Origin: Thermoanaerobaculia bacterium
Lineage (GTDB): Bacteria > Acidobacteriota > Thermoanaerobaculia > UBA5066
Direction: 5' to 3'
NCBI GenBank assembly: GCA_963816185.1
Contig: CAWFJJ010000005.1
Span: forward strand, 160,001 to 224,000
Length of the DNA: 64,000 nt
A program made the translations under genes and the position numbers. Positions 1-42,677 of the stretch are shown here, in pieces. Positions within the stretch are counted from its first letter, which is position 1. Each line of letters opens with the position of its first letter. The notes beneath the pieces were generated by a model, which saw only the letters and a program-made list of their open reading frames with translations, was not told the origin of the DNA and ran no database searches.

Positions 1-855
1 GGAGAGAGCGCCGGACGTGGCGCCGGCGGTGATCTGCGCGGCGTCGGTCGCGGCCGCCACGGCGGCGGGGATGCCGATGAAGATGAGGAGCGGCGTCATC
101 AGGAAGCCGCCTCCGACGCCGAAGAGGCCGGACAGGAATCCGACGAGTGAGCCCATTCCCGCGATGAGAAGAGGGCTCACGGAGGCGCCGGCCACCGGGA
201 AGTAGAACCGCAGGTGCTCGAAAAGGCCTTTGCTCTCCTGGTGCTGCACCCGCCCGACCATGGCCGGTGTGACGTTCGGGTGGCAGGCGCCGCACGTCTG
301 CGCGAGCCTGCCGGGGCTGACGCTCGAACGGGGATCGCTTGCGGGAAGGATGTCGTGAGCCTCGTGGCACGACGGGCAAGTGGCCACGTCGAGAATGCCG
401 TGAGAGAGGGCCACGCCGTGGAACGTCCGCTCGAAGCCCTCCACGCTCGCCGAAGGCAGCTCGGTGTGACGCAGCACCGCGGGGTCGTCGTGGCAGCGCG
501 CGCAGGTCATGGAGACGCGGCCGACCGAGGTGGGCGCGGCCGCGCTGTGCACCGGCAGCACGGCATGGCCGCCGTGACACGACACGCAGGTGGCGGAAAG
601 ACCGTCGCCATTGGCCACGCTGCGGGCGTGCGAGCTCGTGCGGTAAGCCTGAAGCTGCTTCTCGTGGCAGCGACCGCACGAGGCGGCCACGTTCTCGGCG
701 CTCACCGCTGACGCGAAACCGGTCGACGACGCCCCCTCGGACCCGTGACACTCTGCGCACGCCAGGCCCGCGTGAACGCCTCCGAGAGGGACCCGGCCGC
801 CCACCGCCAGAGGACTCGCGAGGACGTGACTTCCGAACCCGAAAGCCGCCGCCAT
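1..855 (-). CDS. Multiheme (6x CxxCH) cytochrome c domain fused to a TauE/SafE-family membrane domain; 3' end runs off the window, start uncertain (about 855-900)
   Basis: Manual translation, not in the ORF track. CAECH 745-759, CGRCH 664-678, CVSCH 574-588, CARCH 490-504, CPSCH 364-378, CGACH 280-294, then in frame YFPVAGASVSPLLIAGMGSLVGFLSGLFGVGGGFLMTPLLIFIGIP (TauE signature); no stop in between. Confidence 0.88.
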   Translation of the reverse strand, partial: MAAAFGFGSHVLASPLAVGGRVPLGGVHAGLACAECHGSEGASSTGFASAVSAENVAASCGRCHEKQLQAYRTSSHARSVANGDGLSATCVSCHGGHAVLPVHSAAAPTSVGRVSMTCARCHDDPAVLRHTELPSASVEGFERTFHGVALSHGILDVATCPSCHEAHDILPASDPRSSVSPGRLAQTCGACHPNVTPAMVGRVQHQESKGLFEHLRFYFPVAGASVSPLLIAGMGSLVGFLSGLFGVGGGFLMTPLLIFIGIPAAVAAATDAAQITAGATSGALS

Positions 856-964
856 CAGAAGGGTCGTGCGCCCTGAGACCCTCAGCGCCGGGCGCGCCTC
901 ATGACGGCCGCCTCGCAGGAATCGAGCGCCTCCCGCCGGACGCTGGCAGCTCTGCACGGCGGTG

Positions 965-979
965 GCAAAGCAAGTCCCA
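965..979 (-). promoter_or_regulatory. Sigma54 -24/-12 promoter candidate for the cytochrome-TauE gene
   Basis: Minus strand TGGGACTTGCTTTGC = GG-N10-GC with TTGC; next to a sigma54 activator gene. Confidence 0.65.
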
Positions 980-1135: not shown

Positions 1136-2515
1136 TCAGCCGGTCTCGAGACCGTAGTGCTTCGTCTTCTCCCAGAGGGTCTTTCGGCTGACGCGCAGGA
1201 GCTGCGCGGCTTCGCTTCGGCGCCCCTCGGTGGTCTCCAGCGCGGCCTTGATGGCCTCGATCTCCGCTCGCTCGACCGCTTCCTGCAGGGTCGTCGCCTG
1301 TGGGGCGGCGGGAGCGCGGTGCGGGGCGGAGCTCGCCGTGCGCACGTTGGCGGGGAGGTCGTCGATCGTGATCTTCGAGCCGGTGCAGAACAGAGCCGCC
1401 CTCTCCACGACGTTGCGAAGCTCCCGCACGTTCCCCGACCAGTGATGCGCGTCGAACGCCTGCAGCGCCTCCGTGGAGAATCCCACGACCGCCTTCTGCC
1501 TCGCGCGCGTGAACTCCTCCAGGAACGACCGGGCCAGGATCGGGATGTCTTCCCTTCGTTCGCGCAACGGCGGGAGGTGAATGGTCACCGTGTTGATGCG
1601 GAAGAAGAGGTCCTCGCGGAACAGACCTTCTGTGATCTCCTCCTCAAGCGGGCGGAGCGACGCCGAGACGATGCGGAAGTCCACATTGATGGTGCGCTGC
1701 GAGCCGAGCCGTTCGATCTGCCGCTCCTGAAGGACGCGCAACAGCTTGACCTGGAAGGAAGGGGGGAGCTCGCCGATCTCGTCCAGGAACAGCGTGCCTC
1801 CGGACGCGGCCTCGAATCGCCCGATCCGTCGGTCGGTCGCACCGGTGAATGCGCCTCTCTCGTATCCGAAAAGCTCCGATTCGAGCAGCGATTCGGGAAG
1901 CGAGGCGCAGCTCACGCGAATGTAGGGGCGGGCTCGCCGCGCCGAGTTGTAATGGACCGCGGAGGCGACGAGCTCCTTGCCCGTGCCGCTCTCTCCTTGA
2001 ACGAGGACGTTCGCGTCGGAGTCGGCGACCACCTTGATCAGCTCGAACACCTCGTGCATCTGCTTGCTCTTGCCGATGATGCTGCCGAACGAGAAGCGCT
2101 GCTCGAGCTGCTCTTGAAGGCGGACGTTCTGCTCCTTGAGCGACCGGAAGGAGCAGACATTGTCGAGGCGCAGCAGGAGCTGCATCATCGAGAACGGCTT
2201 CGTGATGAAGTCCGCGGCGCCCTGCCGCATGGCGTCCACCGCCGAGTCGATCGTGCCGTGCGCCGTGATGATGATGACCGTCGCGTCGGGCTTGAGGGCT
2301 TTGACGCGTCGAAGGAGCTCGAGGCCGTCGACACGCGGCATCAGCAGATCGGTCAGGACGACCTCGTGACCCTGCCGCTCGAACTGCGCAAACGCTTTCG
2401 CGCCATCCTCCGCGACGTCCACCTCCCAGCCTTCCTTGCGAAGAGCGTCCGCCATCGTGATGCGGAGAATCGGCTCGTCCTCGGCGATCAGGAGTCGGTT
2501 TCCACAGAGTGTCAT
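1136..2515 (-). CDS. NtrC/AtoC-family sigma54-dependent response regulator
   Basis: Receiver domain, [24 protein letters not shown], Fis-type HTH. Confidence 0.95.
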
Positions 2516-3987
2516 GGCGTTACTTCTTCGGCCTGCGGGGGGTGGCTCAGGGGCAGGGTGATCCGGAAGGTGGCTCCCTTGCCCACCTGGCTGTTCACCT
2601 CGATGGTCCCGTTGTGAGCCGCGACGATATTATAGCTGACCGCGAGGCCGAGCCCGGTGCCCTTGCCCACGTCGCGGGTGGAGAAGAAGGGGTCGAAAAT
2701 GCGCTCGCGGATCTCTTCTGGAATCCCGACTCCCGTGTCGATCACCTCCGTCACCGCGTTCCCGCCGGTGCGTCGCGTGCGAAGCGTGAGCTTTCCCCCC
2801 TTCGGCATGGCCTGGATGGCGTTCAAGACGAGGTTCAGGAAGAGCTGTTCCATCTGGAAATGATCCGCTAGCACGACGGGCTCGACCGGCGCCAGGTCGA
2901 AGAGCACCTCCACGCGGTTCGCCCGAAGCTGATATTGAGCCAGCTCGACCACATGGCGGAGATTCTCGTTGAGGGACGTGGGCTCGGGGCGGATCTCGCT
3001 CGGCCGGGAAAAATCCAGGAGGTTCAGAACCGTGTGCTCGATTCGCTTGATGCCGTCCTGCACGAGGGCGAGGTATCGGTCGCGCATCTCGACGTCTTCC
3101 GGGTGGGCGACGATCGCCTCCAGGCAGGTGAGGATGCCCGCCAGCGGATTGTTCACCTCGTGAGCGACTCCCGCGGCGAGGGTCCCCACGGCGGCCATCT
3201 TCTCCGTGTGGGCCAGCCTGGCCCACCGCATCTCCTCCCGCCCTCGCGCTTGCTCGAGCTCCTCCATCGTCCGGTTGAAGGCCGCGGCCAGCTCGCCAAC
3301 CTCGTCCCATCGCTTGACCGGAGCACGTGCTTTCAGATCACCCCGCCCGGCCTGCCTCATGGTGTTGTGCAGGTTGAGGATCGGCCGGATCAGCGTCTCG
3401 ACGTAGACCGCGGTGAGGATGGAGCTTCCCAGCATGAGGATGAGCGCCACGAGGCCGGCGCGCTTGGCGATGCCGCGAACCTCCTGCTCGATCGGACTGA
3501 GGGAGAACCCGATGGCCAGGGAGCCCCAGAAGCGTGTCGAGATGCTGAGGGACGTGCGGACCTCGAGAATCCGTTCCCCGGACGAGGCCGTGCGCTGCTC
3601 GACAAGGGAAGCCCCCCCGACCGGAGAACGGTACAAAGCTCGCCCGAAGCGTTGCCCGATGAGGTTCCAACGGTTGGAGTGGGTGACGACTCCCCGCTGG
3701 TCGGTGATGATGACGTAGCGCACGAAGTCGCGGTTGCGGTCGATCAAGCCGTCGAGGTAGCTCTCGATGAGCCCCTCCTCCACGACCGCGCCCAGCTCCC
3801 CGTAGACGAGCGCGTCCGTGACAGGCACTGTAAACGTTTCTGCGAGGGCCCTTCCGCGCGCGACGATCTCGTCGTAGCGAGCGCTACGCTCGTGAATCAC
3901 AGCCAGCACGGTGACGAGCCCCATGGTCACCGCAATGAGGGTGTTCGAGTAAAGGAAGAACTTCAGGCGAAGACCGAGAAACGCCAT
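2512..3987 (-). CDS. Membrane sensor histidine kinase (HAMP, HisKA, HATPase)
   Basis: Two TM segments, [13 protein letters not shown]-box, GKGTGLGL; start trimmed to MAFLGLRLK. Confidence 0.93.
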
Positions 3988-3989
3988 GT

Positions 3990-4895
3990 TCACTGCCGCG
4001 CCGGGAGGCACTCCCTCCTCATCGCCGAGTCGGAGAGAGTGAGCGCGTTTGAGCCGAACACCCGCCGGGCGAGCTTGCGGATCGGGTCGTATTCCTCGTC
4101 GGACACGGGCACGAAGCCTTCGGAGAGCTCTTCCTCCCAATCCTTCATTGCCGCCGCCACCCAGCGATTCTGGCCCGGGAGGACGGCGAGAACGCGCACG
4201 AGCTGCTCCCGAAGTGCCGGCGGCGTTCCGGGGGCCAGTCCGAGCACGAAGTTGGGAATCTGATCCGAGCGGGCCAGGACCCGGAGCGCCTGTCGCGCCA
4301 CGAACTTCTCCCCCACGATGTCGCGCACCGCGCAGGCATCCACCTCTCTAAGAAGGACCGCCCGCGCCGCTTGTTCATTTTGGGCGTAGTACCGGCAGCT
4401 GAGGTTCACGCCGACGCGCAGGCCGGCGTCCTCGAGCATCCCGCGCGCCACGAGGCTGGACGCCGTCGACATCGGCTCGCCGAAGCCGAACTTCTTGCCG
4501 GCCAGCTCCTCAAGGTGCTGCAGCTTGCTGTCGACGCGAACCATGATGAGGCCGTGATACGTGGGCTTGCCGTGGGTGTTGAGCTTGACCACCGGGATGA
4601 CCTGGCAGGCTGCGTGAGCGCGCGCATAGGTGTAAGGACCGAGATTAGCCATCGTCAGCTTTCCGGCGCAGAGGTCCTCCACTGCTTTTTCATAGGAGTC
4701 GACGAGCACGAGATCCCAAGGCTCTCCCGTAGCGCTTTCGAGATAGTTGGCCAGGGGTTGGTACTTGAGGTACATCACCCGGGGGGTATAAACGCTCACG
4801 ACCCCGAAGCGCTTGCGAGGCGACGGCTTTGCGGGTGCCGCGGCCGCGCCGGCAGCCAGCAAGACGACACCCACCAAGCTAGCGAGCGTTCGCAT
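3990..4895 (-). CDS. PhnD/PtxB-like periplasmic oxyanion-binding protein
   Basis: Signal peptide; YQPLANYLE, NLGPYTY, Y-x-GLIMVRVDS, GEPMSTAS motifs; no ABC permease or ATPase nearby. Confidence 0.8.
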   Translation of the reverse strand: MRTLASLVGVVLLAAGAAAAPAKPSPRKRFGVVSVYTPRVMYLKYQPLANYLESATGEPWDLVLVDSYEKAVEDLCAGKLTMANLGPYTYARAHAACQVIPVVKLNTHGKPTYHGLIMVRVDSKLQHLEELAGKKFGFGEPMSTASSLVARGMLEDAGLRVGVNLSCRYYAQNEQAARAVLLREVDACAVRDIVGEKFVARQALRVLARSDQIPNFVLGLAPGTPPALREQLVRVLAVLPGQNRWVAAAMKDWEEELSEGFVPVSDEEYDPIRKLARRVFGSNALTLSDSAMRRECLPARQ

Positions 4896-8433: not shown

Positions 8434-9591
8434 TTATGCCGCGACTTCCCCTCGCACCGACAGAGCGATCTTGTAGAAGATCGTGATGAGCAAAAGGCCC
8501 CCGGCATAGATGCCCAGGGAGATCAGCAGCTCCGGCGCCGTCGGGCTGTAGGAGGTCACCTTTCCCAGGGGAGACGGCACGAAGCCGGTCACGATCATCC
8601 CGAGCCCCTTTTCGATCCAGATGGAGAAGAAGACCGCGATGCACGCGACCGTCAAGGTGCTCTCCCGGCGCCGAGTCCGCGGGTTGAGCAGGAGAACGAG
8701 AGCCGTCACGGCGAGAGCCTCGGCTGCCCACGTCCAGGGGACGAGGGTGGTCCTCCCGTTCAGTCCCAGGAACAGGAACTCGAAGTGCTCGATGTGCTCG
8801 GGGATGCCGCCGTAAAGGGCGGTGAAGAGCTCCATCAAGACGAAGAAGACATTGGCGCACATGGCGTACGTCGCGATGAGCGCCAGCTTCTGGATCGGCT
8901 CTTTCCCCGCGTCGAACCGCGTGATCTTGCGAAGGATCAGGCACATCAGGATCAGCAGCGCGGGACCGGAGGAGAACGCCGACGCGAGGAAGCGCGGGGC
9001 CAGAATCGCGGTCAGCCAGAACGGCCGCGCCGCCAGCCCCGAGTAGAGGAACGCCGTGACCGTATGAATGGAGATCGCCCACGGAATCGAGAGCACGATG
9101 ATCGGCTTGATCCAGTGCGGAGGGGGGACCCCCTTGCGCTCCGCCCCCAGCGTCACGTGCGAGATCAGCACGTTGAGAACGAGGTAGCCCGAGAGGGAGA
9201 CCATGTCCCAGAACATGAGGGAGTGGGGCGTCGGGTAGAGCATCACGTTGAGCACACGCGTCGGCTGCCCCATGTCCACGAAGATGAACAGCATGCACAT
9301 GGTCACGGCGGCGATCGCGAGGAACTCGCCGAGGATCGTGAGCTTGCTGAAAGCCTTCCAGTCGTGCAGGTAGTAAGGGAGGACGACCATCACCGCCGAG
9401 GCCGCCACGCCGACGAGGAACGTGAACTGCGCGATGTAGAGGCCCCATGTGACGTCGCGGGAGAGGCCCGTGATACCGAGGCCGAGGGCGAACTGGCGCA
9501 TGTAGAAGATCGCTCCCAAGGCGATGAGCCCGAGGAGAAGGGTCACCCAGCGCCAATAGCCTCTGCTTCCGACCAACGCTTTCTCGAGCAT
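8434..9591 (-). CDS. dsrP: DsrP, NrfD/PsrC-family membrane subunit
   Basis: TGLSRDVTWGLYIAQFTFLVGVAAS, IPWAISIHTVTAF; follows dsrO. Confidence 0.95.
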   Translation of the reverse strand: MLEKALVGSRGYWRWVTLLLGLIALGAIFYMRQFALGLGITGLSRDVTWGLYIAQFTFLVGVAASAVMVVLPYYLHDWKAFSKLTILGEFLAIAAVTMCMLFIFVDMGQPTRVLNVMLYPTPHSLMFWDMVSLSGYLVLNVLISHVTLGAERKGVPPPHWIKPIIVLSIPWAISIHTVTAFLYSGLAARPFWLTAILAPRFLASAFSSGPALLILMCLILRKITRFDAGKEPIQKLALIATYAMCANVFFVLMELFTALYGGIPEHIEHFEFLFLGLNGRTTLVPWTWAAEALAVTALVLLLNPRTRRRESTLTVACIAVFFSIWIEKGLGMIVTGFVPSPLGKVTSYSPTAPELLISLGIYAGGLLLITIFYKIALSVRGEVAA

Positions 9592-9598
9592 TTACGCC

Positions 9599-10363
9599 TC
9601 ACACCAGGTAATAGACTTCGGGTTGGGTCCCGAGGCCCGGCTTGCGGCGCAGCGCGAATCGCGACCGGAGCAGGCGCCGCACCTCGGAGTCGGGATCGTT
9701 CAGATCGCCGAACGTCATCGCTTTCTCCTTGCAGGCCGCCACGCACGCCGGCTCCTCGCCCCGGTCCAGCCTTTCGTCGCAGAACGTGCACTTCTCGACG
9801 ACCCCCTTCGTGCGCGTCGGGAAATCCCGGTTCAGCACCTTGAGGTGCGGGCGCGGGTCCTCCCAGTTGAAGCTCCGGGAACCGTAGGGGCACGCGGCCA
9901 TGCAATAGCGGCACCCGATGCAGCGGTGCCAGTCCATCATCACGACGCCGTCGGAGCGCTTCCAGGTCGCCCCGGTGGGGCAGACGCGGGCGCACGGAGG
10001 GTTGTCGCAGTGGTTGCAGAAGACCAGGGCCGGCCCCGCGGTGAGCGCCTCGTCCACGTAGGGAGAGTTCTCGTCGGGGAAGACGTCGTGGAAACGCTCC
10101 TGCCAGATCCACTTCACGGCGTGCTTCGGGTCCGACATCGTGGGGACGTTGTGGACGCGGTGACAGGCCTCGGTGCATGCCGTGCAGTCTTTCGTCTCGA
10201 GACACTTGCGCAAATCGATGACCATCGCGCGCCGGATCCCCTTCGGGGCCTCCGAGGTCGAGGCTTCCGCCGTGCCGTCGAGCCGTGAGAGGGATTCGCT
10301 GCCGGCGACGCAGAGCGCGGTCAGGCCGGCGAGCTTCAGGAAATTCCTGCGGTCCTCTCCCAT
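9599..10363 (-). CDS. dsrO: DsrO, Tat-exported 4Fe-4S protein
   Basis: RRNFLK Tat motif; CNHCDNPPC, CIGCRYCMAAC, EKCTFC. Confidence 0.95.
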   Translation of the reverse strand: MGEDRRNFLKLAGLTALCVAGSESLSRLDGTAEASTSEAPKGIRRAMVIDLRKCLETKDCTACTEACHRVHNVPTMSDPKHAVKWIWQERFHDVFPDENSPYVDEALTAGPALVFCNHCDNPPCARVCPTGATWKRSDGVVMMDWHRCIGCRYCMAACPYGSRSFNWEDPRPHLKVLNRDFPTRTKGVVEKCTFCDERLDRGEEPACVAACKEKAMTFGDLNDPDSEVRRLLRSRFALRRKPGLGTQPEVYYLV

Positions 10364-10743
10364 CACGTGTTCTCCTTCGGCTCGTTGTGGCAGTCCCAGC
10401 AGGTGGGCTTGATCGCGAGATCGTCGTGGCAGGAATCGCAGAATTCCGACTTGTTGGGATGGCAGCGGATGCAGGTCCCGACCAGGCTCATCGTGACGAA
10501 CTTCCCGTCTCCGTCCCGGTACGTCCGCTGCTCCTTCCGGACGACGGTGTCCCGCCAGGAGTTGAGCAGCTCCATGTGGCTTGCGCGCATCTCTTCCCGC
10601 GGCGCCACGCATCGTTTCTCCGCGGTGACGATCTTGGGCTGAGGCCTCGGGGGAGGTGCCACGATCGCGGGCCGCCACACCGGGAAGAGCGCCAGCGCGA
10701 GAAAAGCCGTGATCCCGGTGAGGATCTTGCCTCCGTCATACAT
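10363..10743 (-). CDS. dsrJ: DsrJ triheme cytochrome c
   Basis: Three CxxCH; MRASHMELLNSWRDTVVR. Confidence 0.95.
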   Translation of the reverse strand: MYDGGKILTGITAFLALALFPVWRPAIVAPPPRPQPKIVTAEKRCVAPREEMRASHMELLNSWRDTVVRKEQRTYRDGDGKFVTMSLVGTCIRCHPNKSEFCDSCHDDLAIKPTCWDCHNEPKENT

Positions 10744-12355
10744 CGGTGCCGCCCTCCTCGGCCGCGAACGGGTTCCCTCTCAGGTCCGTCGTCCTCGGCT
10801 TCTCACCCTCCATCACGAGCGCGTTGCCGACGAGCTCGTGCACGCCCGACACGCCCACCTCGGGCACCCAGTACTCCATCAGGGAGGACAGGACCGCCCG
10901 ATCGATGGCGCAGACGCACGCGAGCGTGTTGACGCCGTGCTTCTCGTGGACGTAGCGCACCGCGTTGGCCCGCGGCAGGCCTCCCCGGAGGCGCATCTCC
11001 ATGTTCTCGTCGTTCCCGAGACCGGCTCCTCCGCCGCAGCAGAACGTCTGCTCGCGGATCGTGTTCTCCGGCATCTCGAAGAAGTTGTTGCAGACCGCTC
11101 GAATGATGCTGCGGGGCTCCTCGAGGAGCCCCATGGCGCGCGCGGGATTGCACGAGTCGTGAAACGTCACGCGGCGGTGGTCGTTGCGCTTCGGGTCGAG
11201 CTTGAGCTTGCCGTGCCGGATCAGGTCCGCCGTGAACTCGCAGATGTGCACCATCTTCGTCGAGGCGGCGTGATCGAAGCGTGTGTGCGTGAACGGGCTG
11301 ACCGGCACCTCGAGGAAGTCCGCCGGGCCGTTCATCGTGTCCATGAACTGGTGCATGACGCGCCACATGTGGCCGCACTCGCCTCCGAGAAGCCACTTCA
11401 CCCCGAGCCGCTTGGCCTCGTGGTAGATCTTGTAGTTCAGGCGCTTGATCGTGTCGGTCGAGGTGAACAGCCCGAAATTGCCGCCCTCGGAGGCATAGGC
11501 CGAGAGCGTGTAGTCCAGCCCAAGGGCCTTGAATACGAGGAGGTAGCCCATGAAGGTATAGATGCCCGGGTCCGCGAAGTAATCCGCGGAGGGCACGATG
11601 AAGAGCACCTCCGCGCCTTTGCGGTTGATCGACGGCTCGGCCCGGATCCCCGTCAGCCCTTCCAGCTCGTCCACCAGGAAGTCGACGTTGTCCTTGAAGG
11701 TGTGGGGCGGAATCCCGAGATGGTTCCCGGTGCGATCGCAGTTGGCGACCGGCTCCATGACCCAGTTGATGTTGAGCCCGACCAGGTTGAGAAGCTCCCG
11801 CGCGTGCATGGTGATCTCGGCCGTGTCGATGCCGTAGGGGCAGAAGACCGAGCAGCGGCGGCATTCCGTGCACTGGAAGAAGTAGTAGTACCACTCCTTC
11901 AGGAGCTCGGGGCTCAGCTTGCGGGCGCCCGCGAAGCGGCCGAGGATCTTGCCTGCCGTGGTGAAGTCGTTCCGATAGACCGAGCGGAGCAGCTCGGCGC
12001 GCAGAACGGGCATGTTCTTGGGATCCCCGGAGCCGAGATAGAAGTGACACTTGTCGGCGCATGCCCCGCAGCGCACGCAGATGTCGAGAAACACCTTAAG
12101 CGACCGGTATTTCGCGAGCCGTTCCTCGAGCCCGTCCTTGATGATCTGCTGCCAGTTCTCGGGAAGCTTCCAATCCGCGTCCGTGGGAGACCATTCACGC
12201 GGGTTCGGAAAACCGAGGTAACGCAGGTTCTTGCCTGCCGCGGGGTAAGACCAGGAGCCCTTGCGTGCCTCGAAGTCGACCCCCGGGTCCATCCAGTCGC
12301 CCGGCTTGGGCGTGTAGTCGATCTGCACCAGTTCTTGTTTCGTCTTCTCCGCCAT
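10736..12355 (-). CDS. dsrK: DsrK, HdrD-like Fe-S subunit
   Basis: CVRCGACADKC, CTECRRCSVFC, GECGHMWR, FHDSCN, CCGGG. Confidence 0.96.
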   Translation of the reverse strand: MAEKTKQELVQIDYTPKPGDWMDPGVDFEARKGSWSYPAAGKNLRYLGFPNPREWSPTDADWKLPENWQQIIKDGLEERLAKYRSLKVFLDICVRCGACADKCHFYLGSGDPKNMPVLRAELLRSVYRNDFTTAGKILGRFAGARKLSPELLKEWYYYFFQCTECRRCSVFCPYGIDTAEITMHARELLNLVGLNINWVMEPVANCDRTGNHLGIPPHTFKDNVDFLVDELEGLTGIRAEPSINRKGAEVLFIVPSADYFADPGIYTFMGYLLVFKALGLDYTLSAYASEGGNFGLFTSTDTIKRLNYKIYHEAKRLGVKWLLGGECGHMWRVMHQFMDTMNGPADFLEVPVSPFTHTRFDHAASTKMVHICEFTADLIRHGKLKLDPKRNDHRRVTFHDSCNPARAMGLLEEPRSIIRAVCNNFFEMPENTIREQTFCCGGGAGLGNDENMEMRLRGGLPRANAVRYVHEKHGVNTLACVCAIDRAVLSSLMEYWVPEVGVSGVHELVGNALVMEGEKPRTTDLRGNPFAAEEGGTDV

Positions 12356-12358
12356 GTC

Positions 12359-13348
12359 TCACTTCCCGTCGAGAGGGATACCGGCCGCCACCAGCTTGTC
12401 GTGAAAGTCCTTTTCCCACTCGGCATAGGTGTGCCCGACGATGGACGGGTTCCACGGGTTGATGTGCCGGCGCGCCCGGTTGTTGTTGGCGAGGTTTCGG
12501 GTCGGTGAGAGGAAGACGCCCGCCATGTGGACGAGCTTGGAGAAGGGGAAATAGGCAAAGAGGACGCTCACGAGAAAGAGATGCGCGTAGAAGAGCGAGC
12601 CGATGCCTTTGGGGAGCGCCGGATGGAAGGTCACCAATCCCATCGCGAGAGTCTTCACCGCCTCGACGTCCACCTTCGCGAAGTAGCGAAGGAGGATCCC
12701 GGAGATCCCGACTCCGAGGATCAACGCGAGGGGGAAGTAGTCGGCGTGAAGGGACACGTAGCGCAGCCGGGCGTCGGCGAGGCGCCGGAACAGCAGATAC
12801 CCGACGGCGGCGATCAGGAGGCCGTCCGTCACGTAGAGCTCCGGAAGGCCCACCTGGAAGAAGCCGTCCAACCCCTGCAGCCACCTGACGAACGCGGGCA
12901 CGGGCGCCGCGAAGAAGCGGTCGTGGCGCAGGAGGATCACGAGGAACGAGTAATGGAAGGCGAGGGCGGCTGCCCAGAGCCACTTGTCGGCGGAGTAGAC
13001 GAGACGTCCCCCTTCCTTGAGCTCGGCGCGCGTGTTGCGGAAAAGTGAGCGGAACGTGAAGACTTCGAGAAGCACGCGCCCGGCGGCGCCGAGTCCCGTG
13101 GAGGGGTTGTCCAGGCGCGCGGACTTGATCCACGAGAGCGAGCGCTGCTGTCCGCAGGTCGTCGGAGTGCGAAAGGGCACCGGCGAGCGCGCCCACCCCA
13201 GGACCCGAGCCGTGATCCCCACGAGGAAGATCGCGATCGCGAGAATGGGAAGCACGATTCCGAACAGGGCCTGGCCCCCCGCCTGGGCGCCGCCGTAGGC
13301 GATCAGGGCCAGCGCCAGAACAAGCAAGAAAGACCAGATGGCCCGCAT
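12359..13348 (-). CDS. dsrM: DsrM, diheme cytochrome b
   Basis: PTTCGQQRSL; both His pairs FHYSFLVILLRH and AHLFLVSVLFAYFPFSKLVH. Confidence 0.96.
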   Translation of the reverse strand: MRAIWSFLLVLALALIAYGGAQAGGQALFGIVLPILAIAIFLVGITARVLGWARSPVPFRTPTTCGQQRSLSWIKSARLDNPSTGLGAAGRVLLEVFTFRSLFRNTRAELKEGGRLVYSADKWLWAAALAFHYSFLVILLRHDRFFAAPVPAFVRWLQGLDGFFQVGLPELYVTDGLLIAAVGYLLFRRLADARLRYVSLHADYFPLALILGVGISGILLRYFAKVDVEAVKTLAMGLVTFHPALPKGIGSLFYAHLFLVSVLFAYFPFSKLVHMAGVFLSPTRNLANNNRARRHINPWNPSIVGHTYAEWEKDFHDKLVAAGIPLDGK

Positions 13349-18757: not shown

Positions 18758-19843
18758 TCACGCCTGCCGCATGTGGACGGAGCGTTTGAACGTCTCGCCG
18801 GCGTGCTTGAAGTCGTCGATGTGGTACTTGGTGAATTCGATGCCGGTGAGCTCGAAGAACTTCGGCCAGCCGATCCGGTCGATCCACTCTCCAACCCGCT
18901 CGAACTTGCGCGCGTTGGCGCCGTACACTTTGACGATATTCGAGACGGCGCTCACGACCTCGGGCCACCGCGGCGGGTTGTTGGGCAGGAAGGGGATCGC
19001 GAGCTTGGAGAACCGGGGCTCGGAGCGGGCGTTGGAGACCTTGCCGCCCACCCAGATCGAAATGCCGTCGTTCTCGGCATTCGCGATCTTCAGCGCGGGA
19101 CACACCGTGAAGCAGTTGCCGCAGTACATGCACTGCTCCTCGATGATCTCGACGGATTGGACGCCGTCCACCATGGCCGGCCGGACCGCGCCGGTCGGGC
19201 AGGACGAGACCACGCTGGGGATCTCGCACATCTTCGGGAGGTCCTTGTGGCTGATCTTCGGGGGCTTGCGGTGGATGCCCAGAATGGCGATGTCCGAGCA
19301 GTGGACCGCGCCGCACATGTTGAGGCAGCACGCGAACGCGATGCGGACCCGCGCCGGCATGTCGATGTTGACGAAGTGCGGGTACAGGTCGTCCATGACG
19401 GACTTCACGACGCCGGACGCATCGGATGCCGCGGAGTGGCAGTGGACCCAACCCTGGGTGTGGACGCAGTTGGAGATCGACGCCCCGACACCGCCGACCG
19501 GATAGCCCTCTTTTGTCAGGGCCGCGATGAGCGGATCGATGTTGGCGGGATCCGTGGGGAGGAACTCCACGTTGTTCCGGCTCGTGAAGCGGAGGTGTCC
19601 GCCGGAGTACTCGTCCGCCAGCTTGGCGAACAGGCGGATCGTCTCGATGGACAGGAGGCGGGGCGAGGCGGCGCGGACCGTGTAGAGCTTGTCGCCGGAG
19701 GCGGCGACGTGCACCAGGACGCCCGGCTTGAGAATCTCGTGATACTTCCACTTCCCGTAGTTCTTCTTGACGACGGGAGGGAGGAACTTCTGGTAGTGGG
19801 GCGGGCCGATGTCGGTTTTTCTCGGATTGGCAGACATTCGCAT
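18758..19843 (-). CDS. dsrB: Dissimilatory sulfite reductase beta subunit
   Basis: [40 protein letters not shown]. Confidence 0.98.
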
Positions 19844-19864
19844 GTTCTCCTTACGTTCCCGTCC

Positions 19865-21058
19865 TCAGGCCGTCTCTTCCACGGTGTCCTGGTAGAAGAT
19901 GTAGGGGTTCGATCGGGGCGCACTGATCATCTCGGGGGCGGGCTCGAGGCCGACCTGCTCCAGGAAGCTCGAGAGGCCGATCCTCTGGATGAACTCGCCG
20001 ACGCGTTCGCGGTTCTTGCCGTGCTCGGACCAGAGATCCCAGATCCGCGAGATGAGCTCTTTGATGTCGTCGTAAGGCGGCTCCATCTTGATGAATGGCA
20101 CGAGGACGCTGGCAAGCAGCGCGCCGCCCACGATGGGCGCCTTCGCCCCGATGAGAATCGCCGCGCCGCGGTCGTCGCCGGGGGCGAGCGCCTTCGGCAT
20201 CGCGTTGATGCAGTGCATGCACTTGACGCAGTTGCGGTTGTCGATGCCGAGCGCCGAGCCGTTCCAGGCCATGCAGCGGGTCGGGCAGCGGTCGCAGACG
20301 TCTTTCTGGATGTCCAGCTTGCCGCTCGCGGCATAAGCCTTGACCTGCTCGGCGTCGATCTTGATGTCGTCCCGCCAGACGCCGATGAACGACATGTCGG
20401 AGCGCGCCACCGAGGCGACGCAGTCATTGCCACAGCCGGCGAACTTCAGCTTGTACTTGTAGGGGAAGGCCGGCCGGTGCAGCTCGTCCTGGTACGTTTG
20501 CGTGAAGTCGTAGCAGGCGCCCATCGTGTCGTAGCAAGCCCATTCGCAGCGCGCCTGTCCCGCGCAGCACGAAGGCGTCCGCATGTCCGAGCCGGAACCG
20601 CCGAGGTCGAATCCTGCGGCGGTCAGCTCCGCGAAAACGGGCTCCAGCTCTGCGGTCTTGGCGCCCAGCAAAACGAGGTCTCCCGTCGAGCCGTGCATGT
20701 TGGTGAGGCCGGAGCCGTGCCGGTCCCAGATGTCCGCGATGGTTCGCAGCGCGTCGGAGGTATAGAACCATCCGGCTGGTTGATTGATGCGCATGGTGTG
20801 AAATTCGGCGCATTCCGGGAACTCGGCGGCGAGGTCCGAGTAGCGGCCGATGACGCCGCCCCCGTACCCCATCACGCCCACGAGGCCGCCGTGCTTCCAG
20901 TGGCCCACCTTCTCCTCGTACGAGCGCTCGAGCTGGCCGAGGAGATCCCCGACCATTGGCCTGTCGGCCTCTTTCTTGAGCTCTTTGACGAAGCTCGGCC
21001 ACGGGCCCTTCTCCAGCTCGTCCAAAAGCGGTGTTTCCTTCTTGCCCTTCTCAGTCAT
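19865..21058 (-). CDS. dsrA: Dissimilatory sulfite reductase alpha subunit
   Basis: [31 protein letters not shown]-x5-C and GCGNDC siroheme/Fe-S motif. Confidence 0.98.
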
Positions 21059-21147: not shown

Positions 21148-21163
21148 AGCAACCCTTGTGCCC
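21148..21163 (-). promoter_or_regulatory. Sigma54 -24/-12 promoter for the dsrAB operon
   Basis: Minus strand GGGCACAAGGGTTGCT, near consensus. Confidence 0.8.
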
Positions 21164-22985: not shown

Positions 22986-22986
22986 G

Positions 22987-23892: not shown

Positions 23893-23937
23893 CGGGAACC
23901 CTCCTCGTCGGGCGAGAGCCCGGCGCCCGGGCAGCAT

Positions 23938-23952
23938 GACAGTTCCGTGCCA
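23938..23952 (-). promoter_or_regulatory. Possible sigma54 promoter for dsrM2K2 with non-canonical -12
   Basis: TGGCAC-GGAAC-TGTC: perfect -24, TC in place of GC. Confidence 0.35.
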
Positions 23953-24389: not shown

Positions 24390-24827
24390 ATGCCTAGTTT
24401 TGTGAACCCGGAGAAATGCGACGGGTGCAAGGCGCTCGACAAGACCGCCTGTCAGTACATCTGTCCGAATGACCTCATGGTCCTCAACAAGGACATCATG
24501 AAGGCATACAACCAAGAACCGGAGATGTGCTGGGAGTGCTACAACTGCGTCAAGATCTGCCCGACCCAGGCGATCGACGTGCGCGGCTACGCGGACTTCG
24601 TCCCCATGGGCGCGTCGGTGGTTCCCATGCGCTCCACCGACAGCATCATGTGGACGGTGAAGTTCCGCAACGGCACCGTCAAGCGTTTCAAGTTCCCCAC
24701 CCGCACCACCCCAGAGGGCCAGGCTCAGCCTCAGGGCGGATTCAACACGGAGCCCTCGCTCGACGGAACCGTTCTGTTCACGGAACCCGCTTCGCTCGGC
24801 CTGCCCGCCGTGTGGGCGAAGGCCTGA
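24390..24827 (+). CDS. aprB: APS reductase beta subunit
   Basis: CDGCKALDKTACQYICP, CWECYNCVKICP, RFKFP. Confidence 0.98.
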   Translation: MPSFVNPEKCDGCKALDKTACQYICPNDLMVLNKDIMKAYNQEPEMCWECYNCVKICPTQAIDVRGYADFVPMGASVVPMRSTDSIMWTVKFRNGTVKRFKFPTRTTPEGQAQPQGGFNTEPSLDGTVLFTEPASLGLPAVWAKA

Positions 24828-24837
24828 GGAGGCAGCC

Positions 24838-26745
24838 ATGGTCGAATTCAAAACCGTCCAGGTCGAAACCGACCTCCTCATTCTCGGTGGCGGAATGGCC
24901 GCTTGCGGCGCCGCCGTCGAGGCCGCGTTCTGGGCCAAGAAGCACGGACTCAAAGTGACCCTGGTGGACAAGGCGGCCGTAGACCGCTCCGGTGCCGTGG
25001 CCATGGGTCTCTCCGCCATCAATCAGTACGTCGGACTCAAGGATGGCCAGAACACCATCAAGGACTACGTGGACTACGTGCGCAACGACCTCATGGGCGT
25101 CACGCGTGAAGACCTCGTAGCCAACATCGCACGGCACGTCGACTCCTCCGTCCATCTCTTCGAGAAGTGGGGTCTGCCAATTTGGAAGGATGAGAAGGGC
25201 GCCTACGTCCACGAAGGCCGCTGGCAGCTCATGATCAACGGCGAGTCGTACAAGGTCATCGTGGCGGAGGCCGCCAAGAACGCGATCGGCAAGGAGAACA
25301 TCTACGAGCGCGTGTTCATCGTCGGCCCCATCATGGAGAACGGGCGCTGCGTCGGCGCGTACGGCTTCTCGGTGCGCGACAACACGTTCTACGTCTTCAA
25401 GGCGAAGGCCGTGCTCGCCGCCATGGGCGGCGCCGTCCACGTCTTCAAGCCGAGGTCTTCCGGCGAGGGTCAGGGCCGCGCTTGGTATCCGCCTTGGAAC
25501 GCCGGCGCCTCGGCCTACTTCACCCTCAAGGCCGGCGCCGAGATGACCTGCCAGGAAGTCCGCTTCATTCCGGTCCGCTTCAAGGACGCGTACGGCCCGG
25601 TGGGCGCCTGGTTCCTGCTCTTCAAGGCCCGCGCGACGAACGCGCTGGGCGAGAACTACATGGAGACGAACAAGCCCGAACTCGAGAACTGGGTGCCCTA
25701 CGGTCACGTCAAGCCGGTTCCCGCGAACCTGCGCAACTACCTGATGATGCTCGACGTGATGAAGGGCAAGGGCCCCATCTACATGCGGACCGAGGAGGCC
25801 ATTCAGAAGATCGCTGCCGGAGCCGGCGACGACAAGGCCGCGAAGAAGAAGCTCAAGGAGCTGGAGACCGAGGCATGGGAGGACTTCCTCGACATGACGA
25901 TCTCCCAGGCCATCCTTTGGGCCGCGACCAACGTGTCACCGCAGGACCAGCCGTCGGAGATCGCGGCCGCCGAGCCGTATTTCATCGGATCGCACTCGGG
26001 CGCCTCGGGCGCCTGGGTCAGCGGCCCCGAGGACCTCGCACCCAAGGAGTATTTCTGGGGTTACGAGAACATGTCCACCGTCAACGGCCTCTTCTGCGCC
26101 GGCGACGCCTCGGGCGCTTCCTCGCACAAGTTCTCTTCCGGCTCGCACGCGGAAGGGCGCATCGCGGCGAAGGCTGCCATTCGCTACATCACCAAGGAGA
26201 AAGTCTCTGCGCCTAAGCTGAGCGATGCGGACATCGACCGCCTGAAGGCGGAGGTCATCAAGCCGCTGCGCCAGTTCGAGGAGTTCAAGGGCGCGACCAC
26301 GCAGACGGACGTCAACCCCAATTACATCCTGCCGAACATGTTCCAGGCGAGGCTTCAGAAGCTCATGGACGAATACGCCGGCGGCGTGACGTCGCAGTTC
26401 ACCACCTCCGAGCAGCTGCTCAAGAGAGGGCTGGAGCTTCTGGCGTTTCTCAAGGAAGACGCGGCGAAGCTGGGTGCCCCCGACTTGCACGAGCTCATGC
26501 GGTGCTGGGAGAACGTTCACCGGATGTACCAGGCGGAGGCCCACGTCCGCTCGGTTCTCTTCCGCGAAGAGACCCGCTGGCCGGGCTACTACTTCCGCTC
26601 CGACAAGCCGAAGATCGACGAGAAGAACTGGCACGTGTTCGTGAACTGTCGCCTGAATCCGGCGACCGACTCGTGGGAGATGGCCAAACGGCCGATCGTC
26701 CACACTTTCGTCAAAGCCGCAGAGCGTGAGCTCCAGCCGGTCTGA
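24838..26745 (+). CDS. aprA: APS reductase alpha subunit
   Basis: GGGMAACG, RSGAVAMGLSAIN, WQLMINGESYK, HKFSSGS, ETRWPGYY. Confidence 0.98.
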   Translation: MVEFKTVQVETDLLILGGGMAACGAAVEAAFWAKKHGLKVTLVDKAAVDRSGAVAMGLSAINQYVGLKDGQNTIKDYVDYVRNDLMGVTREDLVANIARHVDSSVHLFEKWGLPIWKDEKGAYVHEGRWQLMINGESYKVIVAEAAKNAIGKENIYERVFIVGPIMENGRCVGAYGFSVRDNTFYVFKAKAVLAAMGGAVHVFKPRSSGEGQGRAWYPPWNAGASAYFTLKAGAEMTCQEVRFIPVRFKDAYGPVGAWFLLFKARATNALGENYMETNKPELENWVPYGHVKPVPANLRNYLMMLDVMKGKGPIYMRTEEAIQKIAAGAGDDKAAKKKLKELETEAWEDFLDMTISQAILWAATNVSPQDQPSEIAAAEPYFIGSHSGASGAWVSGPEDLAPKEYFWGYENMSTVNGLFCAGDASGASSHKFSSGSHAEGRIAAKAAIRYITKEKVSAPKLSDADIDRLKAEVIKPLRQFEEFKGATTQTDVNPNYILPNMFQARLQKLMDEYAGGVTSQFTTSEQLLKRGLELLAFLKEDAAKLGAPDLHELMRCWENVHRMYQAEAHVRSVLFREETRWPGYYFRSDKPKIDEKNWHVFVNCRLNPATDSWEMAKRPIVHTFVKAAERELQPV

Positions 26746-27154: not shown

Positions 27155-27939
27155 GCACAGAGACCTGCACGGTGTCCGAGGCGGTCCACGAGCAGCGGCA
27201 TCTCGCCGAGGGCGAGCAGTTTCGTTTTGGCTGCAACCCGAGCGTCGCCTGCTTCAACCGCTGCTGCGCCGACGTGAACATCCTTCTCACCCCGGTCGAC
27301 GTCCTGAGGCTGGCGCGCCGGCTTCACCTCACGACCCGCGAGTTCCTCGACCGGCATACCCTCACGCCGATCACGAAAGAGCTTCACCTTCCCGTCGTCA
27401 TCATGCGGATGCGGGAGGAGGCCGAGAAGCGCTGCGAATTCGTCGGGGAGAACGGCTGCACCGTGTACGAGGACCGCCCCTGGGCGTGTCGCATGTACCC
27501 GCTCGGGATGGCATTGCCGCCGGCGCGGGCCGGGGTCGAGCCGACGCCGGTCTCGTTTCTCTTCGAAGACGACTTCTGCCTCGGCCGCGAGCAAGCCCAG
27601 ATCTGGACGGCGGCCACCTGGCGAAAGGACCAGCGGGCGGAGGAGCAGGAGGAGGTCGAGGCGGGTTTTCGGGACCTGGTCTCACACCCCTGGTTCATCG
27701 GCGGAAGGCAGCTCGACCCGAAGCGGATGGAGATGTTCTTCCTCGCATGCTACGACCTCGACACGTTCCGTCGCCTCGTGCTCGGCTCGAGCTTCCGCGA
27801 TCGCTTCGTGCTCGAGCCTGATCTCGTCGAGCGCCTCAAGAGCGACGACCTCGAGCTTCTGCGGTTCGCCTTCCGCTGGCTCCGTTTCGCCCTCTTCGCG
27901 GAGCCTACGATGACGGTGCGGGAGAAAGGCAAGTCATGA
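27151..27939 (+). CDS. YkgJ/CxxCxxCC-family Fe-S/Zn cluster protein
   Basis: C-x5-CFNRCC, GCTVYEDRPWACRMYP. Confidence 0.88.
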   Translation: MSTETCTVSEAVHEQRHLAEGEQFRFGCNPSVACFNRCCADVNILLTPVDVLRLARRLHLTTREFLDRHTLTPITKELHLPVVIMRMREEAEKRCEFVGENGCTVYEDRPWACRMYPLGMALPPARAGVEPTPVSFLFEDDFCLGREQAQIWTAATWRKDQRAEEQEEVEAGFRDLVSHPWFIGGRQLDPKRMEMFFLACYDLDTFRRLVLGSSFRDRFVLEPDLVERLKSDDLELLRFAFRWLRFALFAEPTMTVREKGKS

Positions 27940-29189
27940 CCGCACGGCATCATCGGCCGCTGCTGGTCGTCGGGGCCGGCATCGCCGGCGTCACCGCCGC
28001 CCTCGAGGCGTCCGAAGCCGGCCGGGACGTCGTCCTGGTGGAGCGGGACGCCGCGGTGGGCGGCCGCGTCCTTCGCAACCACCACTACTTTCCCAAGCTC
28101 TGTCCGCCGTCCTGCGGGATGGAGATCAACACCCGCAGGCTGGAGCGCAATCCCCGCGTGCGGGTCCTGACCGAGTGCGAGGTGACGAAGGCGTCGCCTT
28201 CCGACGGCGGCTGGCGCGTCACGCTGACGCGCGCCCCGGCCTTCATCGCCGATCAGTGCACCGCGTGCGGCGCCTGCAGCGAGGTCTGTCCGGCCCAGGT
28301 GGCGGATCCGTTCAACCTCGGGATGGCGAAGGTGCCGGCGGTGCGCCTGCCGTTTCCAAGCGCCTGGCCTCGTCGTTTCGTCCTCGATCGCGCGGCCTGT
28401 CCTCCGACCTGCCGGGCGTGCGTGGACGCATGCAAGTACGCGGCGATCGACCTCGAAGCAAAGGAGCGCGAAGAGACGCTCGACGTGGGCGGGGTCGTCA
28501 TCGCCACGGGCTGGAGCCCCTATCCGTTGGAGAAGCTTCCCGAGCTGGGCGGAGGGGTGTTTCCGGACGTGATCTCGAACGTGCAGATGGAGCGGCTCGC
28601 GGCCCACTCGGGTCCGACGCAAGGCCGGATCGTGCGCCCCTCCGACGGGCAGTCGCCCAAGCGCGTGGCGTTCGTCCAGTGCGCCGGCTCGCGGGACGTC
28701 CATCACCTGCCGTATTGCTCCGCCGTCTGCTGTCTGGCCTCCCTCAAGCAGGCCTTGTACGTCCGCGAGGAGCTCCCCGCGACCGAAGTGGACATCTATT
28801 ACATCGACCGCCGTACCCCCGGTCGCAACGAGGAGATGCTCCGCCGGGTCGCGGCGACGAAAGGCGTGAACCTGATCAAGGGAAAGGTGGGCAAGGTGGA
28901 GCGCGGCGAAGGCGGGGTCCTCCGCCTGCGGGTGGAGGACGTCGCGAACGGCCGCCTTCTTTCTGCCGAGGCCGAGCTGGTCGTGCTCGCGACCGGCATG
29001 GTACCCGGCCTCGCCGGCGACTCTCTCCCGTTCCCCGTGTCCCGGGACGAGGACGGCTTCGGCCTCGACAGCCCGGAGTCGGGGCTGACCGTGGCCGGAG
29101 TGGCCCGGCGACCCGAGGACGTCGCGGCGTCCGTGCGGGACGCCACCGGGGCGGCGGCGAAGGCCCTCGTGGCGGGAAGGTGGGCGTGA
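27936..29189 (+). CDS. qmoA: QmoA (HdrA-like)
   Basis: YFPKLCPPSCG, QCAGSRD, YCSAVCC. Confidence 0.93.
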   Translation: MTARHHRPLLVVGAGIAGVTAALEASEAGRDVVLVERDAAVGGRVLRNHHYFPKLCPPSCGMEINTRRLERNPRVRVLTECEVTKASPSDGGWRVTLTRAPAFIADQCTACGACSEVCPAQVADPFNLGMAKVPAVRLPFPSAWPRRFVLDRAACPPTCRACVDACKYAAIDLEAKEREETLDVGGVVIATGWSPYPLEKLPELGGGVFPDVISNVQMERLAAHSGPTQGRIVRPSDGQSPKRVAFVQCAGSRDVHHLPYCSAVCCLASLKQALYVREELPATEVDIYYIDRRTPGRNEEMLRRVAATKGVNLIKGKVGKVERGEGGVLRLRVEDVANGRLLSAEAELVVLATGMVPGLAGDSLPFPVSRDEDGFGLDSPESGLTVAGVARRPEDVAASVRDATGAAAKALVAGRWA

Positions 29190-31435: not shown

Positions 31436-31447
31436 GGGAGGCGCGCG

Positions 31448-32581
31448 ATGTCAACCTCGGCGGCGATTCTCCCCTCGGCCGACTTTCGACGAGACCTCGA
31501 GCGTCGAGGCGGAGCGACCGTCTCCCGCTGCTTCCAATGCGCCACGTGCTCCGCCGTGTGCGACCTCACCACGAACGGGGCGCCCTTCCCGCGCCGCCAG
31601 ATGCTCTTCGCCCAATGGGGGCTGAGCGAGCGAGTGATGGGAGATCCCGGGCTTTGGCTCTGCCACCAGTGCAACGACTGCACCCAACGATGTCCGCGCG
31701 ACGCCCGACCCGGCGACGTCCTCCAGGCGGTGCGGGCGCAGGCGGTGGAGAAGCTTGCATTCCCCGCGGCGCTCGGCCGGCTCGTCGGACGCGCGGCCAC
31801 CACGTGGCCGCTCCTGTTCGCCCTCCCGATCCTCTTCTGGGTCGCGCTCCTGGCCGGCACCGGTCACCTGAACGTGCCCGCCGACTTCCGCGCTTACGAG
31901 CAGGTCGTCCCGCACGCGCTGATCTACGGCGTGTTCTTCCCGGTCGCCGGATGGGTCGTTCTGGCGAGCTGGGTGAGCGGGCGAAGGCTCTGGGCTGCCC
32001 TCGGCGCCGGGTCCCCGCGTTCCGGCCCGTTCCTGGGGAGTCTGATGCCCGTCCTCGGCGAGATCGCGAGCCACAAGCGATTCCAGTCGTGCGGGGCCGC
32101 CCGCCCTCGCTTCACCGGTCACCTCCTTCTCTTGTGGGGCTTCGTGGGGGCCGCCGTCACGTCCGGCCTCCTGGTCGTCGGAATCTACGTCCAGAAGCTG
32201 CCGATGCCGCTCGCCCTCTCGCATCCTTACAAGATTCTGGGCAACGTGTCGGCGGTGCTGCTCGTCGTCGGGGGCGGCTGGCTGGTCGCGACCCGGCTCG
32301 GGAATCGGGCGGCGACCGGCGCGTCGACCGCCTTCGACGCCTACTTCCTCACGATGGTGGTCCTCGTCATCGTCACCGGGGTCCTCGCCGAGGTGGCGCG
32401 CCTCGCGCTCTCGCCCTCCTTCGCGGTCGCCATCTACATCACGCATCTGGGGGTGGTGCTGAATCTCTTCATCACCTTCCCGTATTCGAAGTTCTCACAC
32501 CTTCTTTACCGCTCCATCGCCATGCTCCACCAGCGCATGGCCGACGTTGGTGAGCGCAGCATCGCTGGACACGCCCAATAG
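31448..32581 (+). CDS. qmoC: QmoC membrane cytochrome b/Fe-S subunit
   Basis: [25 protein letters not shown]. Confidence 0.93.
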
Positions 32582-40010: not shown

Positions 40011-40041
40011 GCAGGATCCTCACCGAATCGCGGCGAAGCCG

Positions 40042-42665: not shown

Positions 42666-42677
42666 CGGGAGAGATCC

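Follow-up and report, generated by a model that had tools for sequence, protein, structure and literature searches.

Results

The cyt-TauE gene

At the left edge of the 64,000-nucleotide stretch of Thermoanaerobaculia DNA analysed here (the window; C5:160001-224000, on contig C5 of the source genome, G000) lies a gene, hereafter cyt-TauE, in which a multihaem cytochrome c is joined to a TauE/SafE-type permease. With the next gene, which encodes an Alph_Pro_TM protein, it forms a two-gene cassette that is an accessory part of the dissimilatory adenosine 5'-phosphosulfate (APS) pathway in one class of bacteria. The two genes are laid out as follows.

1..855 (−): first 285 codons of the cyt-TauE gene, an open reading frame (ORF) open at the left edge of the window and closed using the genome flank
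280..759 (−): hexahaem cytochrome c module, with six CxxCH motifs that form three 'paired CxxCH' units, accompanied by conserved distal His residues (Pfam, motif scan, alignment)
1..162 (−): N-terminal portion of the TauE/TSUP permease domain, by AlphaFold2 model and a Pfam match that begins at residue 266 of the 554-residue ORF; the remainder is outside the window, to its left
814..855 (−): presumed Sec signal peptide (MAAAFGFGSHVLAS...), from sequence and alignment; weak here, clear in homologues
G000:C5:158494-159291, left of the window: Alph_Pro_TM (TIGR02186-type) partner, next gene after cyt-TauE

The ORF runs from 957 to 1 on the minus strand and, in the flank that we fetched, reaches its stop 707 nt beyond the window, which places the left end of cyt-TauE at G000:C5:159296. 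Because it crosses the window edge, it is missing from the track of complete ORFs. The protein has 554 residues when counted from GTG 957 (the longest ORF) and 520 from ATG 855, the form recorded in the protein collection (P0004). A previous, sequence-only reading of this DNA had left the start unclear; ATG 855 gives the form on record, and the frame from the out-of-frame ATG 902 begins MRRARR and meets a stop at 884..882. The same reading had six CxxCH motifs running without a stop into TauE, and this is borne out by a single in-frame ORF whose TauE domain is complete once recovered from the flank. Numbered from GTG 957, the motifs start at residues 67, 94, 124, 152, 194 and 222, with Pfam matches to Cytochrome_C7 (35.5 bits, cut-off 24.8), Cytochrom_c3_2 (36.1, cut-off 25) and Paired_CXXCH_1 (23.8, cut-off 20.6). 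The cytochrome part of ~200 residues is followed by a linker of ~25 residues and then by the TauE domain (PF01925; 148.8 bits, cut-off 32.6), which covers residues 266-531 and profile positions 2-235 of 237. No NCBIfam model reached its cut-off in a scan of the cyt-TauE locus proteins, and public annotations among the matches to cyt-TauE read 'TSUP family transporter', 'uncharacterized membrane protein YfcA' or 'hypothetical protein'. Judged by its sequence, cyt-TauE is a single real gene for a predicted Sec-exported, periplasmic hexahaem cytochrome joined to a TauE/TSUP permease.

Conservation of the fusion

In the best 120 clusters from a 5.8-billion-protein collection, at least two CxxCH motifs occur together with PF01925 in 109, mainly as a six-haem form of ~540 residues (48 clusters) and a nine-haem form of ~645 residues (37 clusters). 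Nine clusters have no motif and two have one; the remainder resemble truncated calls. The six CxxCH motifs and their spacing are invariant across 25 aligned homologues, so the six-motif pattern exceeds chance. At the nucleotide level, contigs from runs of two studies, the best of which may include the window's source sample, span 25-525, 1-297 and 268-760 without a gap, and contigs from other runs are gap-free over 804-962 and 807-1283, so that the start region shows no indel. The sole indel in the compared contigs falls at 1064, in the upstream intergenic region.

These data bear on whether a frameshift, an assembly chimera or read-through has united two genes on paper. Such an artefact could leave separate genes behind, and five TauE-only proteins of 309-327 residues plus two one-motif fragments do nest among the fused forms in the TauE tree described below, either as split genes or, possibly, as truncated calls. 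Against it stand the same collinear fusion in 109 of the 120 clusters and in 21 genomes of three families, and the gap-free contigs from two other studies across the domain junction. We therefore dropped this explanation, to which we leave next to no chance. The sequence-only reading had singled out a stop or indel between the domains, or homologues that are always separate genes, as what would overturn it; the independent contigs show neither stop nor indel there, and the homologues are mostly fused. A metagenome contig scan with an alignment of the cytochrome plus junction returned 80 loci with generic multihaem or TauE first-helix matches and no full-length fused gene, and an ESM Atlas search gave no usable match.

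Distribution and association with the APS pathway

In a first draw the fused gene was present in none of 24 genomes of the same genus and none of 16 of the same order, of which one, G030, is flagged as unpublished. Across the phylum it turned up in 3 of 401 genomes, and across the class in 21 of 401, distributed over three families. The APS reductase gene aprA occurs in 66 of the 401 class genomes, and the carriers make up 21 of these 66, compared with 0 of the 335 aprA-negative genomes, a co-occurrence given here as counts and without a statistical test since related genomes are not independent samples. This strict genomic association with the APS pathway among the 401 class genomes is a new result. 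In the family of the source genome, aprA is found in 4 of 39 genomes (the source plus 3 of 38), which are exactly the four fusion carriers; in this family the entire sulfur region may have been gained or lost in one piece. One of the 19 other genomes of the source genus has both aprA and the fused gene.

The position of the cassette was read from 20-kb flanks in the 21 carriers. In 11 genomes it lies within aprBA-qmoABC-[cyt-TauE-Alph_Pro_TM]-sat, directly after qmoC; one genome has the order qmoABC-sat-H+-PPase-cassette; in four, all from the family of the source genome, the cassette sits beside the H+-pumping pyrophosphatase (H+-PPase) gene, in three beside a PpsA-like gene, and in two beside none of these neighbours. 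When we examined 14 aprA-positive non-carriers, qmoC adjoined sat in 12 and was separated from it by an unrelated peptidase-like gene in two, and the cassette was there in none. The comparison of carriers with non-carriers at the qmoC-sat junction thus identifies the cassette as a pair of accessory genes inserted into the sulfate-activation section of the region.

Two further observations concern these genomes. The aprA match of carrier G681 (G681:C7:627880-628884) is partial, with three in-frame TGA codons, and its apr-qmo genes match weakly (41-55%); this cluster may be decaying or divergent. Besides, aprA-positive genomes without the cassette repeatedly encode DUF2270 integral membrane proteins near sat (L220, L228, L232), and one is encoded at 48758-49429 of the window.

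The TauE domain and its Alph_Pro_TM partner

In the AlphaFold2 model (pLDDT 71, pTM 0.65) the TauE domain consists of two repeats, each a beta-hairpin plus five helices; from this model, the topology may be either an inverted repeat or 4+4 membrane crossings that leave both termini outside. GVGGGF is present in both halves and invariant in the 25-sequence alignment, and H286 is the sole conserved His of the membrane part. The conserved transport-core residues, among them D271, Q274, T430 and Q434, are identical in 101 fused and 73 stand-alone domains. Among weak Foldseek matches of the full model to the PDB, the best-shaped were BacA/UppP (TM ~0.5 on target).

The partner protein scored 140.2 bits against PF09608 (cut-off 24.5) and 67.3 against the NCBIfam model TIGR02186 (cut-off 255.25); being above the one and below the other, it is a distant, non-alphaproteobacterial member of Alph_Pro_TM. 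It has a signal peptide and ends in a single transmembrane helix; between them lie two beta-sandwich domains with a helical insert (model pLDDT 87.3). Its structural neighbours were only generic fibronectin type III- or immunoglobulin-like beta-sandwiches (Z up to 8.5), with no functional hint. Complex prediction of TauE with Alph_Pro_TM gave ipSAE values of 0.58, 0.58 and 0.59 versus 0.00 for the best control, which the tool rates as 'weak support'; at least 80% of contacts are common to the three runs, and the partner pLDDT is at least 68.

We surveyed 78 species-representative loci with this TauE subfamily. An Alph_Pro_TM match occurs in 62, in 59 of them directly downstream, and likewise in 22 of 25 fused loci. 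A PpsA-like phosphoenolpyruvate-utilising enzyme is encoded in 36 of the 78 loci, a full-length sigma54 response regulator in 28 and a USP gene in 15; stand-alone loci of Desulfobacterota show the order sigma54 site-USP-TauE-Alph_Pro_TM-PpsA-like. A canonical stand-alone set, TauE-Alph_Pro_TM-PpsA-like, is also encoded on contig C28 of the source genome. Only three of the 78 loci (L018, L019, L020) encode a fused TauE, and the other 75 lack the N-terminal multihaem cytochrome. Nor did the 78 loci contain a separate multihaem gene beside a stand-alone TauE, save in L024 on the opposite strand, which led us to drop the idea that the fusion merely joined habitual neighbours. In a TauE-domain tree of 127 rows, from which 68 of 109 fused rows had been dropped and whose root on two long-branched paralogues is unsure, the fused domains are separated from 77 stand-alone domains, which form a clade of their own (99 SH-aLRT).

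Of note, one of the three fused loci, L018, is a 4.6-kb contig labelled Acidithiobacillales that holds a 79%-identical cyt-TauE, an Alph_Pro_TM gene and a 91%-identical H+-PPase gene in the order of the source genome; because of these identities and this order, it is probably a mis-binned contig from a relative of the source genome. The two cassette proteins also resemble each other at their ends: TauE terminates in GGGH in 87 of 101 fused proteins, and most non-alphaproteobacterial Alph_Pro_TM proteins in ..GGH or ..GAH, with ...FRKG instead in alphaproteobacterial partners. By its sequence, the common GGH tail could be a metal-binding or recognition tail.

Two of these features, the shared ...GGH ends and the PpsA-like dikinases, of which two copies adjoin the cassette of the source genome, would suit a cargo other than a sulfur oxyanion, either a metal such as iron whose redox state is set by the haems, as in MamO/MamP-type systems, or an organic compound that the dikinase phosphorylates. 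MamO itself is described as a periplasmic metal-binding domain fused to TauE (PMC4794232). Such a cargo is nonetheless very improbable in our view, as the fused form is confined to aprA-positive genomes and placed between qmoC and sat, and the flanks examined showed neither iron-uptake nor magnetosome genes.

The haem module

Besides the CxxCH motifs, the module contains extra His residues that are conserved across the 25 sequences: His76, His146 and His167 are invariant and His97 and His205 at least 90% conserved, and a sixth precedes haem 1 in 15 of 16 six- or seven-haem rows. Five plus one conserved extra His amount to one distal ligand per haem, the bis-His pattern of electron transfer. 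The alignment holds no catalytic-haem signature, that is no CxxCK and no conserved Cys, Lys, Met or Tyr ligand. On this basis, the module is of the bis-His electron-transfer type, as far as its sequence indicates, and without a catalytic signature.

A full HMMER scan of 1.84 billion representatives recovered 2777 relatives of the module at E<=0.001, often as tandem repeats, and TauE is also present in only 5 of the top 150. The nearest are 33-42% identical (E down to 1e-76), and 8 of 12 scanned relatives carry a C-terminal Ni_hydr_CYTB (cytochrome b561-type) membrane domain. This domain had no match in cyt-TauE in the Pfam scan, which sets the protein outside the CbcL type. Profile matches in the PDB were limited to the haem part and weak: two uncharacterised multihaem proteins, MtrA and NrfB.

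The kinship with multihaem c proteins bearing Ni_hydr_CYTB, the position directly behind qmoC in 11 genomes and a count of six to nine haems, which fits long-range electron transfer, invite the thought that cyt-TauE is a membrane-anchored electron conduit. The haem wire would then relay electrons between periplasmic donors or acceptors and Qmo/Dsr, and TauE plus Alph_Pro_TM would serve as an anchor, a docking platform or a new quinone- or electron-handling module in place of the CbcL-type cytochrome b. We regard this as unlikely. TauE keeps the entire stand-alone core and its partner gene, which favours retained transport; H286, being the only conserved membrane His, leaves no ligand pairs for b haems; TSUP proteins have no known quinone-site motif; and one transmembrane helix would be enough for anchoring.

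The haems might instead act on the cargo, for instance by oxidising exported sulfite or by reducing thiosulfate, tetrathionate or polysulfide before import. About 25 residues separate the last haem from the permease's first conserved element, TauE-family proteins have been linked to sulfite and sulfonate export (PMC3949148; PMC4794232, citing Weinitschke 2007), and a TauE pair is reported to rise in thiosulfate disproportionation (PMC13490349). Yet with one conserved distal His per haem and no catalytic signature, with no Mo, Cu or other catalytic domain in the Pfam and NCBIfam scans, and with PDB profile matches that are weak and at best to uncharacterised multihaem proteins and the electron-transfer types MtrA and NrfB, periplasmic chemistry on the cargo appears distinctly unlikely.

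Regulation

Upstream of cyt-TauE, the following features were identified.

965..979 (−): sigma54-type −24/−12 promoter candidate TGGGAC-N5-TTGC (motif scan), 124 nt upstream of ATG 855
1136..2515 (−): NtrC-type sigma54-dependent response regulator (REC, Sigma54_activat and HTH_8), directly upstream of cyt-TauE
2512..4140 (−): sensor histidine kinase (sCache-like, HAMP, HisKA, HATPase_c; domain scan)
3990..4895 (−): PhnD-type periplasmic binding protein (Phosphonate-bd; domain scan)

The promoter candidate has one mismatch to the TGGCAC-N5-TTGC consensus (GG-N10-GC layout), and sites of such quality occur at 0.011 per 450 nt in the source genome. This predicted site, which the sequence-only reading had already put forward, gains from the adjacent NtrC-type activator and from an rpoN gene in the genome (Sigma54_DBD 214.9 bits). 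Similar sites lie 179-269 nt upstream in all six f11-family loci where the fused gene is not behind qmoC. Sigma54-dependent TSUP operons have been documented in Desulfovibrio (PMC4641369).

Sigma54-type sites were also noted at 21149-21163 (−), ~90 nt upstream of dsrA, and at 24225-24239 (+), where a perfect TGGCAC-N5-TTGC precedes aprB by ~150 nt; both sites are intergenic and correctly oriented. With 5 sigma54-like sites against 2.9 expected, the window has no more of them than chance would give, and their placement alone is suggestive. The dsr, apr and cyt-TauE units may, on these motifs, be under common sigma54 control.

The dissimilatory sulfur region

The window is a dissimilatory-sulfur region with complete dsrAB, dsrMKJOP, aprBA, qmoABC and sat, in which DsrA, DsrB, DsrM, DsrK, DsrO, DsrP, AprA, AprB, QmoC and Sat all scored above curated cut-offs.

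8434..13348 (−): dsrMKJOP (DsrM 501 bits, DsrK 722, DsrO 305, DsrP 462)
10779..10366 (−): dsrJ ORF, 3 CxxCH (triheme)
18758..21058 (−): dsrAB (DsrA 572 bits, DsrB 495 bits)
24390..26745 (+): aprBA (AprB 220 bits, AprA 922 bits)
27936..32581 (+): qmoABC (QmoC 396 bits, cut-off 300; QmoA and QmoB by HdrA-like domains)
32599..33864 (+): sat, sulfate adenylyltransferase (461 bits, cut-off 387)
41589-42665: TauE paralogue, 34% identical
46225-48711: PpsA-like dikinase of a second cluster
48758-49429: DUF2270

The cassette adjoins this region. QmoA and QmoB are 62-74% identical to the copies in related loci, and DsrL-like and DsrN-like genes are likewise in the window. A second DsrM-like/DsrK-like pair, both below curated cut-offs, lies at 21372-24039 (−) between dsrA and aprB. 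At 35730-37487 (+), just downstream of sat and an Rrf2 regulator and flanked by PAS kinase and receiver genes, a 585-residue protein is encoded that unites HdrD-like Fer4_8 and CCG domains and ends in a response-regulator receiver domain. The second cluster, at 39934-49429, comprises a Cytidylate_kin2-like gene, the TauE paralogue, a response regulator, a kinase, the PpsA-like dikinase and DUF2270. The pairing of TauE with PpsA-like genes recurs in the source genome, which has three such sets.

Discussion

We propose that cyt-TauE is an accessory sulfur-oxyanion permease of the APS pathway whose activity a haem wire links to the periplasmic cytochrome pool, and give this reading about even odds (roughly 0.5). 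TauE and Alph_Pro_TM would form a permease that moves the sulfur oxyanion of the pathway over the cytoplasmic membrane. Its cargo is probably sulfate, our best guess because the cassette adjoins sat and H+-PPase; most likely, sulfate would be imported for Sat, or sulfate or sulfite exported if the pathway is oxidative. Six bis-His haems at the periplasmic mouth of the permease would swap electrons with the periplasmic cytochrome pool and thereby couple transport to the redox state of the cell, in the simplest case as a redox gate that passes sulfate only with reductant present. In the source genome, the cassette would be driven by its own sigma54 promoter and the adjacent two-component system with its NtrC-type activator. 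A redox-gated or redox-coupled sulfur-oxyanion transporter had been suggested by the sequence-only reading as well: the sulfur link is now backed by the aprA counts and the qmoC-sat position, and the redox part is still an inference from haems that look like a bis-His electron-transfer wire.

Several findings weigh against this proposal. The cassette is dispensable, as 45 of the 66 aprA-positive genomes lack it, and no SulP, DASS or CysP transporter was found beside sat in the aprA-positive non-carriers that could replace it. In 9 of the 21 carriers it lies outside apr-qmo-sat, with ~24 kb to aprB in the source genome, and the counts themselves stem from related genomes. Stand-alone relatives also occur in Alphaproteobacteria, and the pairing of the subfamily with PpsA-like dikinases in nearly half of the surveyed loci could point to an organic substrate. 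Six to nine haems go far beyond the need of a redox sensor, and the N-terminus from ATG 855 is hydrophobic but has no basic n-region, making for a weak signal peptide here, with clear ones in the aligned homologues. No sigma54 site was found upstream of the fused gene in the three closest relatives. As for structure, no solved TSUP structure emerged, the TauE part having no PDB sequence match and the full model no Foldseek hit against the PDB at E<=0.001, and in the literature on the TSUP subfamily cited here no substrate is assigned (PMC4641369, PMC5840216). Finally, searches of the source genome, which is 94.9% complete, found no DsrD and no DsrH, the one for DsrD lacking a positive control; the pathway may run in the reductive or the oxidative direction.

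A different device is conceivable, in which the redox state of the haem wire itself drives or gates anion transport through the TSUP permease, or in which TauE/Alph_Pro_TM, placed directly behind QmoC, and Qmo share a coupling site where periplasmic electrons and sulfate jointly enter APS reduction. We consider either version quite improbable; if true, the coupling site would bear on the energetics of Qmo-AprAB.

The proposed permease can be set beside several known systems. With the Alph_Pro_TM-paired subfamily of TauE/SafE (DUF81), that is TSUP (PF01925, TC 2.A.102), it shares a complete TauE domain with GxGGG in each half, and with the stand-alone members the core residues, the partner gene that follows downstream and the tendency to be under sigma54 control (as described in PMC4641369). 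Unlike these, it has an N-terminal periplasmic multihaem cytochrome, is embedded in apr-qmo-sat and groups separately in the tree. A conserved TSUP clade is reported as the only candidate sulfate transporter in some sulfate reducers, and 'clade B' (DVU2958, Adeg_0175, Dret_2118; Marietou et al. 2018) has been proposed to transport sulfate (PMC5840216); the D. vulgaris operon DVU2957-2964 is described as DVU2956-controlled and sigma54-dependent (PMC5840216, PMC4641369, PMC7531388). We liken cyt-TauE to clade B by description, not sequence, and the clade B proteins have no cytochrome domain. A pair of TauE and a 'co-occurring transmembrane protein' was reported as more abundant during thiosulfate disproportionation (PMC13490349).

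In CbcL of Geobacter, a periplasmic domain with nine bis-His haems is described as sitting on a di-haem b domain (PMC9129911). With such CbcL-type bc cytochromes, cyt-TauE shares a homologous multihaem module, the order of periplasmic haem domain before membrane domain and bis-His haems (PMC9129911). Its membrane domain, however, is a TauE permease and not a HydC/FdnI-like Ni_hydr_CYTB, and it has no b-haem His pairs and thus no evident quinol site. MamO of magnetotactic bacteria, in which a degenerate trypsin-like domain precedes a C-terminal TauE, is likewise a fusion of a periplasmic domain to TauE (PMC4794232). Unlike in cyt-TauE, the N-terminal domain of MamO is a metal-binding pseudoprotease and its context magnetosome genes; homology was compared at the level of the TauE family only. 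That TauE proteins are usually stand-alone, as stated in the sequence-only reading, therefore holds, with MamO as a periplasmic-domain fusion already known (PMC4794232). No description of the cyt-TauE architecture itself was found in the literature searched, supplements lying outside that search.

Sulfate importers of dissimilatory sulfate reducers are unsettled, and TSUP proteins figure in the sources cited as candidates without substrate data or structure (PMC5840216, PMC4641369). Of the genomic pointers that we found to a dedicated APS role of the subfamily, the strongest is a cassette that sits in aprBA-qmoABC-sat and is confined to aprA-positive genomes. The fused haem wire would give a permease direct contact with the periplasmic electron pool, which is rare among transporters, and redox-gated or redox-coupled anion transport could be addressed with one two-gene construct. 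The cassette also flags a variable accessory module within those sulfur-cycling gene sets which are spreading in soil and wetland Acidobacteriota-type lineages.

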